A stretch of DNA of 64,000 bases, from positions 3,008,001 through 3,072,000 of the forward strand of contig CAVVPN010000003.1 of assembly GCA_963750165.1 (NCBI GenBank), written 5' to 3'. Positions 3,042-5,594 of the stretch are shown here, one piece after another; positions within the stretch are counted from its first letter, which is position 1; the number at the start of each line of letters is the position of its first letter. The translations under genes were made by a program, and so were the position numbers. This stretch comes from an uncultured Gemmataceae bacterium. Lineage in GTDB: Bacteria; Planctomycetota; Planctomycetia; Gemmatales; Gemmataceae. Under the pieces are notes generated by a model that saw only the letters and a program-made list of their open reading frames with translations, did not search any database and had not been told where the DNA came from.

Positions 3042-3248
3042 GAGCAACTTGCTCTTTTTCGTGGACGGCCCCTGTGCTATGGCACGCCCCGCTTGCCGGA
3101 GCACTCCGCAGCACCCGCGCAGTCCGCAAGCACCCCGTCGCGCCGGCGGCCGTGTCCCGCACGCTCCACCGGCGCCGTTCGACCCCTCGTCTCCTTCCGG
3201 CTGCCGACGCCAGGACGGCGCGGCTCGCCGGCGACAAAGGATCCGATC

Positions 3249-3878
3249 ATGCGTAAGGAAGCGCTCGCGGTGCTGACCGTCGTGGGCACGGTGTTGTGGA
3301 TCGCCCCCAACCCCGCCCTCGGTGCGCAGCTTTGAGGGCCGGGGGGGTGCTCACCCCAGATGATCGGCCGTGCGCCGGTCCAGTCCGCCCCGCTGTTTCT
3401 GCCGCCGGCGCCACCGCCCCAGCAGTACGTCCGGCCGGCACCCCAGCAACCCTATCCGCAGGCGCAGCCGCAGTGGAACCCCGGCCCGGCGCCGACCGCG
3501 GCGCTGCCGCCGCCGGTCATTCGCGGCAAGGCCGAGGATGAGCCACTGCCCGCCCCAGTACCGCTCGCGCCGTCCAGTCCGCCGCCGTCGCCCGCGCTGC
3601 TGCAACTGCCCCCGCCGAGCGCACTCGGCGTCCGGGACGCGGCCCTGACACCGGCCGCACCGGGGCTGGACTGGAACGCGGTTCACGCCCAGCTCCAGCG
3701 GCTCGGCGCCGTCGGCTTTCAGGTGAGCCGGCTGCCGCAGGGCGGTCATCGGGTGACCTTCGTGTTGCCCACCGCGCAGGCGGGGCAGACGCGCCACATC
3801 GTGGCGGACGCCGCCGACGAGGCGGCGGCCGTCCGGGCGGCGCTGGCCAGAGCCGAACAGGCGGTCTTGCAGCGGTGA
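3249..3878 (+). CDS. Secreted Pro-rich protein with one in-frame TGA (3333-3335); candidate selenoprotein or readthrough gene
   Basis: ATG 3249 (AAGGA upstream) encodes a signal peptide in the same frame as ORF 3360-3878: ...ALGAQL*GPGGCSPQM...; intrinsic terminator follows. Confidence 0.65.
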
Positions 3879-3886
3879 CAGTGTCT

Positions 3887-3936
3887 TCCGCCGGGCGGCT
3901 CGACCCCACCGGTTGAGCCGCCCGGCGGATTTTTTT
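3887..3936 (+). terminator. Rho-independent terminator
   Basis: TCCGCCGGGCGGCTC...GAGCCGCCCGGCGGA stem followed by T7. Confidence 0.8.
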
Positions 3937-4020
3937 CGCCCTGGGTTGTTTGCGCCGGCCTGAATCGCGTGCTATGGTACAGGGGGAGAGTACGTACCAG
4001 GGGCCGACGCGAGACGCATC

Positions 4021-4623
4021 ATGAGCCTGACCGAACTGCAAGGAGTTGCGAATACCGTCGTTCGCCGCGCTCAGCGCCAGGGGTTCGTCTTGCCGCGCGA
4101 CATTCGCGCCGAACTGACACGGATGGGCTTGCCCGAGGAACAATGGAAGGATGTCATCGAACTGGCCCGCGAGTCGCTCCATTTTCGCCAGGGCCGCTAT
4201 TTCTTTCTCTCCAGCGTCAGCCCACGGCTGCGCCAGGAACTGACGCAGCAACAACTCATCGCGCGGGCCATCCAGCGCCTCATCCGCCACCACCGCACCC
4301 AGACCAGCCCGAACGACCGCCGACGGGAAGACCGCCTGGATTTCATCCAACCGGTGAAGGTGCGATCTGACGATGGCCACGAAACCACACTGTTGAGCCG
4401 CGACCTCTCCACCACCGGCATTCGTCTGATCGGCACGCGCAGCCTGCTCGGCCAGAAAATCCGCGTGCAGTTGCCCGCTGGCGACGATGGCTCCGTCCTC
4501 ACCTTGCTGGTGCGCATCCTCTGGACCGCCGCCATCGGTGACGAACTGTTCGAGAATGGTGGCTCCTTCATCGAGATGGTCGCGCCGCCGACCGAGGGGC
4601 TCAAGCTGGTCGGCACGTCGTGA
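4021..4623 (+). CDS. PilZ domain protein (c-di-GMP receptor) with small N-terminal helical domain
   Basis: RREDR (RxxxR) and DLSTTG (DxSxxG) motifs. Confidence 0.8.
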   Translation: MSLTELQGVANTVVRRAQRQGFVLPRDIRAELTRMGLPEEQWKDVIELARESLHFRQGRYFFLSSVSPRLRQELTQQQLIARAIQRLIRHHRTQTSPNDRRREDRLDFIQPVKVRSDDGHETTLLSRDLSTTGIRLIGTRSLLGQKIRVQLPAGDDGSVLTLLVRILWTAAIGDELFENGGSFIEMVAPPTEGLKLVGTS

Positions 4624-4632
4624 AGGTGAGGG

Positions 4633-4720
4633 GGTGAATGGGTGAGGGGATGAATGGGTGAGGGGGTGAAAGAAGCTGTCTTTTCACCCCCTCACCCATT
4701 CATCCCCTCACCCATTCACC
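4633..4720. repeat. Inverted pair of 16-bp short tandem repeats forming a hairpin between convergent genes
   Basis: (TGAATGGGTGAGGGGR)n followed by its reverse complement; overlaps the stop codon of the minus-strand gene. Confidence 0.8.
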
Positions 4721-5495
4721 TCGTACGGTCCATCTGCTCCAGGACTGCGAGAATGGCCGAGCGGCAGTCCAGGGCCGTCGCCTCGTACTGGCGCTCGTAA
4801 CCCGGTGCCGTTTGCACCGTACAGATGAACTTGTGGCCGTTTCCGAATGACTCCTGCCGATACGATACCATTTTGCGCGACTTCAACTGGGCCAGCAACG
4901 AATCGTAGTCCCCAGACCCCACCGGCGAGGCGTAGGCGCTGGCGGGCACCAGGCCACCGGCGGCGGTGGGACCCGGCGCCGACGGTGCGTCCGGCAATGG
5001 CTGCACCACCACCGGTTGTGGGCGGCCCAGCGTCACACCGGGCGGCCCGTGTTCCTGCAGCCGCGGCGTGGGCGCCGGCGCCGGCGCGGGGTTCACGACA
5101 CTGGTGGGCACCTGCCAGCTGCCGACCGGCTGTGCGGTGCGCTTGCCCTCCTCAATGGCCAGGCCGGAGCGGGCGCCCGGCAGCGGATCGCCCAGGGCCA
5201 TGGCGGCGTTGCTGCTCGACGATGTGGCGGTTGGGTTTGACGGCAAGGCGGACCACTTCGTCTTGGTCGTGGGCGTCGGCGAGGTTGTGGCCGTCGGCGT
5301 CGTCAACGGGTAAGTCTGCGGTTGCATCTCGCCGACGAGCGGGTCGCCGGCGCCCAGCTTGGACGGAGCGACCGACGGCGCTTGACAGCCGGCCAGCCAG
5401 ACCAGGGCCGACACCGCCACGGCGCAGACGAAACGGCGCGGCCGTCGGGGGGGCAGCCCCCGCGGGCGTTTTCCGGGCTGTGGTTGCCTTGGCAT
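4716..5495 (-). CDS. Pro/Thr-rich lipoprotein; C-terminal domain similar to that of 3249-3878
   Basis: Lipobox LAGC; low-complexity linker; C-terminal ~65 aa aligns by eye with the 3249-3878 C-terminus. Confidence 0.75.
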   Translation of the reverse strand: MPRQPQPGKRPRGLPPRRPRRFVCAVAVSALVWLAGCQAPSVAPSKLGAGDPLVGEMQPQTYPLTTPTATTSPTPTTKTKWSALPSNPTATSSSSNAAMALGDPLPGARSGLAIEEGKRTAQPVGSWQVPTSVVNPAPAPAPTPRLQEHGPPGVTLGRPQPVVVQPLPDAPSAPGPTAAGGLVPASAYASPVGSGDYDSLLAQLKSRKMVSYRQESFGNGHKFICTVQTAPGYERQYEATALDCRSAILAVLEQMDRTR

Positions 5496-5594
5496 ATTGA
5501 CCCACTTGCCGCGCCGGCTAAATTGACGCTTCATCAAGAATTGTTAATCGGTCGTGAATGTCCCTCCCCTATAGGCAAAAGAAAGAATTTTGCA

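Follow-up and report, generated by a model that had tools for sequence, protein, structure and literature searches.

A candidate exported selenoprotein family of Gemmatales with a selenocysteine-cysteine pair on a disordered arm

A reading frame that is interrupted by a single TGA shortly after an apparent export signal can be a damaged gene, a pair of adjacent genes or one gene in which UGA is read as selenocysteine (Sec). This question is raised by a locus in a 64,000-nucleotide stretch from an uncultured Gemmataceae bacterium (contig CAVVPN010000003.1 of assembly GCA_963750165.1), which is called the window here. A preliminary description of the window had proposed a secreted selenoprotein, with one in-frame TGA, a frame that stays open for about 180 codons and a strong terminator behind it. 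The layout is as described: 28 codons run from ATG 3249 to the TGA at 3333-3335, 180 open codons follow, the frame closes with a second TGA at 3876-3878, and a 19-pair terminator-like hairpin at 3887-3929 leads into a T run. Translated with TGA as U, the product has 209 aa with U29 and C34 (MRKEAL...LGAQL-U-GPGG-C...). The features of the locus, in window coordinates, are the following.

3236..3241, plus strand: Shine-Dalgarno-like AAAGGA, from the sequence, upstream of ATG 3249
3249..3878, plus strand: complete gene, whose product has 209 aa if TGA 3333 encodes Sec
3249..3326, plus strand: predicted signal peptide, with MRK n-region, hydrophobic core and likely cleavage after ...LGA
3333..3335, plus strand: in-frame TGA, predicted Sec29, TGA in 91 of 92 readable orthologs
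3344..3357, plus strand: proximal hairpin of the preliminary description (GGGGT-GCTC-ACCCC), a structure that is not conserved
3348..3350, plus strand: partner Cys34 of the U-x4-C motif, from ortholog comparison
3351..3665, plus strand: low-confidence arm rich in Pro and Gln, in which R92 is conserved and a P-x-P-x-x-L-G motif lies at about 3606-3629
3362..3380, plus strand: predicted SECIS element, a 7-bp stem with loop CGTGC (N-GU-NN) at 3369-3373 and covariation
3666..3875, plus strand: C-terminal alpha-beta-beta-beta-alpha domain, a dsRBD/HPF-like arrangement with pLDDT 95-97
3887..3937, plus strand: intrinsic terminator-like hairpin and T run, from the sequence

Conservation of the in-frame TGA

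A protein search found a match in 103 of 200 Gemmataceae genomes, and a profile of 29 sequences raised this number to 165, a few of which are weak or paralog matches. A further profile, derived from short forms of the protein, gave 9 additional true matches among the 35 genomes missed by the 29-sequence profile. The N-terminus was read directly in 81 distinct Gemmataceae genomes, including the genome of the window (G000), in batches of 30, 37, 6 and 8; one frameshifted copy among the 30 was later resolved. TGA occupies the Sec site in all 81 readable Gemmataceae orthologs and in 10 of 11 from a sister family (f100), so that over both families the codon is TGA in 91 of 92 cases, a Cys codon (TGT) in one, and never TAA or TAG. 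Such conservation at one position exceeds chance, at a full-length identity to orthologs of 35-47%, and on this comparison UGA29 is conserved family-wide across Gemmataceae and the sister family. Whether orthologs carry TGA or Cys at this position had been posed as a check in the preliminary description, and the sole substitution is indeed Cys. Left out of the 92 were two thioredoxin fusions (L066 and L067), two contig-end fragments without an N-terminus (L137 and L173) and spurious weak matches. Upstream of the start codon, most of 29 orthologs have sites resembling GGAG or AAGGA, as judged by eye. Other searches contributed little: a word-index homolog search returned only 3 proteins, a locus search with the C-terminal domain gave one weak partial match in an unrelated record, which was discarded, and weak matches of the short-form profile in G027, G589, G134, G170, G187, G600, G136 and G077, as well as a second match in G172, proved spurious on reading.

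The single Cys homolog that aligns to the Sec site (locus L116) belongs to the sister-family genome G555, which is 94% complete. Its site reads ...TYAQ-C-PGGA-C (Q-C-P-G-G-A-C), and the protein carries two additional Cys residues (CPGGACGSRCPSC). By eye, no hairpin with a GT loop is found at this ortholog; selA, selB, selD and tRNA-Sec were not found in the genome, and its two matches to the tRNA-Sec model are tRNA-Ser. The closest relative of this Cys form is L137 from another genus (G691), 69% identical, whose residue at the Sec site is unreadable because the sequence ends at the contig edge. A wider database search yielded 796 matches among 1.84 billion representatives. The best 150 of these 796 contain no Cys homolog, leaving the one from G555 as the only one found overall, and all 150 begin at profile position 31 or later (10 were read), which is what truncation at the UGA gives; a full-length Cys form is absent among them. 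One relative, MBY0526484.1, is annotated as 'hypothetical protein, Gemmataceae bacterium'. Recognition of the family would correct a systematic misannotation in these best 150 of 796 representatives, which start after the UGA.

A covarying hairpin and the Sec machinery

The preliminary description had placed the SECIS element in a hairpin about 14 nt downstream of the UGA, and this assignment does not hold. The proximal hairpin is present in the single-sequence MFE fold of 63 nt, a fold that is no more stable than shuffled sequences (z 0.57), and it was rejected as SECIS because the consensus structure obtained from 33 orthologs does not contain it. That consensus consists of a 2-pair stub of invariant codon letters and a 7-pair stem with a 5-nt loop, which is the distal hairpin at 3362-3380 (GATCGGC-CGTGC-GCCGGTC, 33 nt after the UGA). 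The mean best pairing probability is 0.55 for the proximal hairpin (above 0.5 in 35 of 61 loci) versus 0.82 for the distal one (50 of 59). A core of the type GGC-NGTNN-GCC occurs in 59 of 61 parsed loci, at 24-36 nt downstream in 58 and at 51 nt in one, with 6 further loci missed by the parser behind this set. With its 5-nt loop, 7-bp stem and distance of 33 nt, the distal hairpin fits, the MFE criterion aside, the geometry of the bSECIS model, for which the accessible text of a 2026 review gives an apical loop of 3-9 nt with G at position 1-2, a stem of 4-16 bp and a distance of 16-37 nt from the UGA (PMC13188914).

In an alignment of 58 rows (57 distinct), 90.5% of the cells are paired versus 77.1% after shuffling, five pairs show changes on both sides, and none of 500 shuffles scores as high; in all controls with a slid stem, pairing drops to 21-48%. 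Because the rows were picked by the core motif (58 of 61), the invariant core is partly a product of selection, an independent test is confined to the outer pairs, and kinship inflates covariation. The loop codon is always xGT (GGT, AGT and CGT in 37, 13 and 8 of 58, encoding Gly, Ser and Arg), GGC precedes it in 56 of 58, and the codon that follows ends in G in 57 of 58; by this comparison, the constraint is on nucleotides. Separate from the hairpin, the partner Cys codon is TGT in 39 of 61 orthologs versus 302 of 1069 in the background, and the preceding Gly codon is GGG in 29 of 54 versus 24 of 105. This GGG-TGT bias, at 3342-3350 in the window and in orthologs without a conserved hairpin, is possibly a second cis signal.

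When the genome was scanned for the family-derived core after TGA, coding potential on both sides was found at only one of 313 sites, the TGA gene itself, a result that speaks to specificity only, since the motif came from the family. A looser scan for NGTNN ranks a Prx-like UxxC gene, a TlpA-like UxxC gene and FdhA first, each with a stem and an N-GU-NN loop, and also lists a UxxC gene with this loop type, which we take to be ArsC-like. No clear enrichment of NGTNN after TGA is seen in the looser scan (21/1060, compared with 8/632 for TAA and 23/1702 for TAG), and the gene at 3333 is not among its 21 TGA sites, probably because the Pro-rich arm scores poorly as coding.

Likely selenoprotein genes elsewhere in this genome are located at C12:1195919(-), C3:2187769(-), C3:1169930(-), C1:471060(+) and C1:104649(-) and comprise an exported Prx-like UxxC protein, an exported TlpA-like UxxC protein, FdhA, an arsenite methyltransferase and the ArsC-like UxxC protein. 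A second exported candidate, L155 (G000:C12:939749-940753, minus strand), encodes about 325 aa with a predicted signal peptide and strong coding potential across its TGA (...SGDFEDPDFT-U-NNAE...); it has no NCBIfam match and may represent another unnamed selenoprotein family. TGAs with coding potential on both sides also occur at C3:528880(+), C11:1580061(-), C12:86178(+) and C3:1608796(-), the first two with an NGTNN hairpin. That several of the candidate selenoproteins of this genome are exported hints at an envelope-centred selenoproteome.

The genome of the window (9.6 Mb, 93% complete) contains all four components of the Sec machinery for which a search had been proposed in the preliminary description: selA, selB, selD and a tRNA-Sec with anticodon TCA (71.6 bits). 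ARAGORN reports a second tRNA-SeC at G000:C11:1435205-1435300 (minus strand), absent from the Rfam tRNA-Sec search, which may be spurious or degenerate, and an array of 16 tRNA genes lies on a small contig at G000:C10:88560-90125 (minus strand). Among the 200 Gemmataceae genomes, selA is present in 182. In 10 of the 18 selA-negative genomes selB was looked for, and it is present in five (G038, G087, G123, G169 and G170), four of which have the TGA gene. Both selA and selB are absent from the other five, which belong to 3 genera (G027, G101, G131, G030 and G116, being 96%, 100%, 84%, 95% and 94% complete); neither profile finds a true match to the TGA gene in them, and selD was not found in any of the four that were searched. 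A congener of G116, G059, has both selA and the TGA gene. In the Sec-less genomes, Rfam tRNA-Sec matches near or over the cut-off are tRNA-Ser or tRNA-Leu (7 of the 9 matches listed were checked). Absence of the gene is not specific to Sec-less genomes, because 13 selA-positive Gemmataceae genomes of at least 90% completeness also lack a true match with the two profiles. Conversely, a profile match occurs in 10 of the 18 selA-negative genomes, four of which have selB, the other six all being less than 90% complete. Thus, across the genomes searched, the TGA gene tracks the Sec machinery imperfectly, and this co-occurrence is given without a statistic because related genomes are not independent.

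With UGA29 conserved, a covarying hairpin of bacterial SECIS type behind it and a distribution that tracks the Sec machinery, TGA 3333 is very probably recoded as Sec, and the initial proposal of a candidate secreted selenoprotein gains support from the conserved TGA, the Cys substitution and the presence of the machinery.

The predicted protein and readings of the U/C pair

The N-terminus has a positively charged start, and its hydropathy exceeds 2 across about residues 5-18. This pattern and hydropathy would fit the Sec pathway and signal peptidase I, and an uncleaved anchor would also be compatible with them. Sister-family orthologs show A-x-A and then Q at the end of the signal; together with the G-A ends, this puts the predicted cleavage site of most forms one to three residues ahead of Sec. 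A Cys partner follows as U-x4-C in 46 of 61 orthologs and as U-x5-C in 15, in a pattern search that required a Cys, and the order is swapped to C-x4-U in 4 sister-family genomes; from these alignments, the pair matters and its order does not. The U-x4-C motif behind an export signal and on a Pro-rich tether, first described for the window, thus recurs family-wide among the orthologs. The arm itself is about 25% Pro, contains conserved R-x-Q-like and P-x-P-x-x-L-G motifs with invariant R92, P121 and G127 in the ortholog alignment, and is part of a region (residues 18-141) that AlphaFold2 models without secondary structure.

For residues 142-208, AlphaFold2 predicts a confident alpha-beta-beta-beta-alpha domain. 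This domain superposes on dsRBD, HPF-RaiA and YcaO N-terminal folds (Z 7.5-8.3, rmsd 2-6 A over 60-77 residues) at an identity of just 6-22%, a Z level that may reflect only a common arrangement. Foldseek gives no match for the domain at E <= 0.001, Pfam finds no dsRBD or HPF match, and ESM Atlas matches fall in Planctomycetota clusters only; RNA or ribosome binding by an exported protein is unlikely. Several genera lack the C-terminal domain altogether, and their short forms, with a mature protein of only about 80-115 residues and no globular domain, end in two P-x-P-x-x-L-G repeats. The conserved core is therefore the signal, the U/C pair and the docking motif. Two exported thioredoxin-fold CxxC proteins, L066 (genome G163) and L067 (G049), are fused to P-x-P-x-x-L-G and the same C-terminal domain, and may be regarded as candidate reductant partners; an HMM of the C-terminal domain found no such fusion in the genome of the window. 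In other Planctomycetia families, the domain is also seen on membrane-anchored proteins (L094-L100, L121-L128 and L135), and the U/C pair is absent from the 16 of these that were read.

No conserved operon was found in 20 wide loci and the window, in a set where the ORF caller missed the TGA gene in many loci. A PilZ-domain gene lies directly downstream in the window (4021-4623, plus strand); among 66 ortholog loci, 12 have one in their short flanks, and such a gene adjoins the ortholog in one sister-family genome as well. In 9 of the 66 loci, the short flanks contain a gene that we presume to be mraZ-like. At 4716-5537 (minus strand), the window encodes a lipoprotein-like protein that is rich in Pro and matches neither Pfam nor NCBIfam. 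By hhalign (probability 68.7, E 4.6e-5), its C-terminus is probably another member of the small domain family seen at the end of the TGA gene product; the HMM of the C-terminal domain did not find it. Similar genes are located near orthologs in 4 other loci.

In the mechanism proposed here, SelB would read the SECIS and Sec would be inserted at UGA29; on export of the protein, signal peptidase I would cleave it one to three residues ahead of Sec. The Sec and Cys residues, 4 or 5 residues apart, could close reversibly into a selenylsulfide ring at the free end of the long, disordered Pro-rich arm, the other end of which might be held on an envelope partner by the P-x-P-x-x-L-G motif and the small C-terminal domain. 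At the cell surface or in the periplasm, the arm would act as a mobile scavenger or redox shuttle that exported thioredoxin-fold proteins re-reduce; a redox context is suggested because such proteins in G163 and G049 carry the same C-terminal module. Taken as a whole, from Sec insertion through export to the envelope redox role of the tethered ring, this account is held to be moderately probable, and its redox function draws on analogy. A broader proposition has only slightly better than even standing: that these are lineage-wide envelope selenoproteins with Sec outside any enzyme fold, that the Se-S ring on the free N-terminus of the disordered arm is their whole function, that they are almost Sec-only and invisible to screens for Cys/Sec pairs, and that they may be among the main reasons for the retention of the Sec machinery in about 90% of Gemmataceae genomes.

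The same selenoprotein could instead use its U-x4-C tip to bind a metal or metalloid (Hg, Cu, As, Fe-S or another cofactor) or to store selenium at the surface. The two additional Cys residues of the G555 Cys form recall a chelating peptide, short forms lack any folded domain, and a Sec-type arsenite methyltransferase is encoded in the same genome, all of which would suit such a role; the tip, however, offers only two ligands, neither a His nor a third Cys is conserved in the arm, metal-homeostasis genes are not conserved as neighbours, and a fixed spacing of 4-5 residues with swappable order is better suited to a ring, so that metal binding or selenium storage appears unlikely. Less probable by far is a seleno-lipoprotein, in which Sec would be the +1 residue of a lipobox-like signal, lipidated or otherwise attached, with a secondary role for Cys34. 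Such a signal is suggested by G, A or S just before U in 51 of 61 orthologs, commonly as L/S/A-G-A-G-U, but position -1 is P, E, D, N, L or T in the other 10, and the gene at 3333 has Leu where a lipobox carries G, A or S ahead of its Cys or Sec; moreover, sister-family forms have A-x-A and then Q several residues upstream, or a Cys before U. A selenylsulfide ring on an exported arm is thus retained as the preferred reading.

Were the TGA a true stop, a conserved membrane peptide of 28 residues would be followed by a separate cytoplasmic Pro-rich protein that starts at a later Met, for which an ATG is present at 3360 and with which the start of the best 150 of 796 database relatives after the TGA would agree. 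Yet no stop codon other than TGA occurs at this site, one ortholog is fused through a Cys codon, and the conserved P and G-C codons precede any Met: in all 61 parsed orthologs the stretch from the TGA to the partner Cys is free of Met, and 22 of the 61 have none within 20 codons of the TGA. The Pro, Gly and Cys codons after the TGA vary at their third positions, and indels between the TGA and the SECIS keep the frame. This alternative is very improbable, and by the same codon comparison the two ORFs are very probably one gene. Equally remote is a Sec-independent read-through of the TGA, with Cys, Trp or some other residue inserted, or a sequencing error in the assembly. Ordinary TGA-broken pseudogene candidates do occur in this genome, but the in-frame TGA recurs independently in 90 other genomes and is accompanied by the SECIS and the Sec machinery, and TGA also serves as the terminal stop of the gene itself.

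Relation to known selenoproteins and redox tails

None of the Pfam or NCBIfam 20.0 families is matched by any of the 29 long members, and NCBIfam gives no match for 3 short members or the G555 Cys form, in agreement with the initial impression that the protein belongs to no recognised selenoprotein family. The family table of the 2026 review, in its accessible text, holds no entry of matching description, and 'Planctomycet' occurs there 0 times (PMC13188914). Planctomycetes are likewise not mentioned in the accessible parts of the papers on BSepDB (PMC13326102) and deep-Sep (PMC12013277) or of Peng 2016 (PMC5029168). Full Sec gene sets have been described in G. obscuriglobus, with FdhA and FmdB discussed, as far as the accessible text goes (PMC4807772). 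No report of the family was found in the literature available in this partial form; an earlier listing is possible in BSepDB Table S2, Haft and Tolstoy 2025, Deng 2026 or subscription journals. The family appears to be new and set apart from the catalogued families that could be checked. It is very probably a family of exported selenoproteins of Gemmatales that has gone unreported, unusual in its enzyme-free architecture and with hardly any Cys homologs.

Its near lack of Cys homologs may also account for its having escaped notice. According to the accessible text, a new candidate passes deep-Sep only when Cys forms make up two or more of its ten best matches (PMC12013277), so that this family could be missed under that rule. 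An almost Sec-only family represents a blind spot of screens based on Cys homologs and suggests that more Sec-only families exist. A widespread selenoprotein family is thereby added to a phylum with a little-studied selenoproteome, and the natural U-x4-C, C-x4-U and C-x4-C variants allow for a ready comparison of Sec with Cys.

Most characterised selenoproteins have a thioredoxin-like fold (PMC13188914, accessible text); if the proposed function is true, a Sec-Cys ring on an exported disordered arm represents a different use of selenium. The thioredoxin-fold selenoproteins with UxxC or CxxU motifs (Prx-like, TlpA/redoxin and Trx) are alike in combining UGA with a SECIS in the coding region and in placing Sec near Cys, judging from the same text, and two exported genes of this UxxC type occur in the same genome. 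They differ in that their pair is spaced by two residues at the start of a helix of the thioredoxin fold, whereas the residues here are spaced by 4-5 in a disordered N-terminal arm without modelled secondary structure. Wider-spaced Sec motifs are also listed for TsoB (NF045694, UxxxxU) and TsoA (LULAxC) in Table 1 of the accessible text, where TsoB appears as a rhodanese/DsbD fusion (PMC13188914); the NCBIfam models, those of TsoB and TsoA included, match none of the 29 long members, the 3 short members or the Cys form.

The closest parallels to the proposed function are found outside selenoproteins, in mobile CX4C tails. The C-terminus of the class Ia ribonucleotide reductase alpha subunit is a mobile CX4C redox tail that acts by disulfide exchange (PMC11067019), and Cys535 and Cys540 of Plasmodium thioredoxin reductase form a four-residue-spaced pair on a flexible terminus (PMC6272602), both as described in accessible text. 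Like the pair of the family, the tails of both enzymes, on those partial sources, are Gly-rich, with the two residues four apart at a flexible terminus. They differ in being C-terminal, Cys-only and carried by cytoplasmic enzymes, while the pair described here is N-terminal, includes Sec and belongs to proteins that are predicted to be exported and have no catalytic domain. The tails are not homologous to the U-x4-C arm and serve as a working analogy only, by which the arm probably works like a mobile CX4C redox tail.
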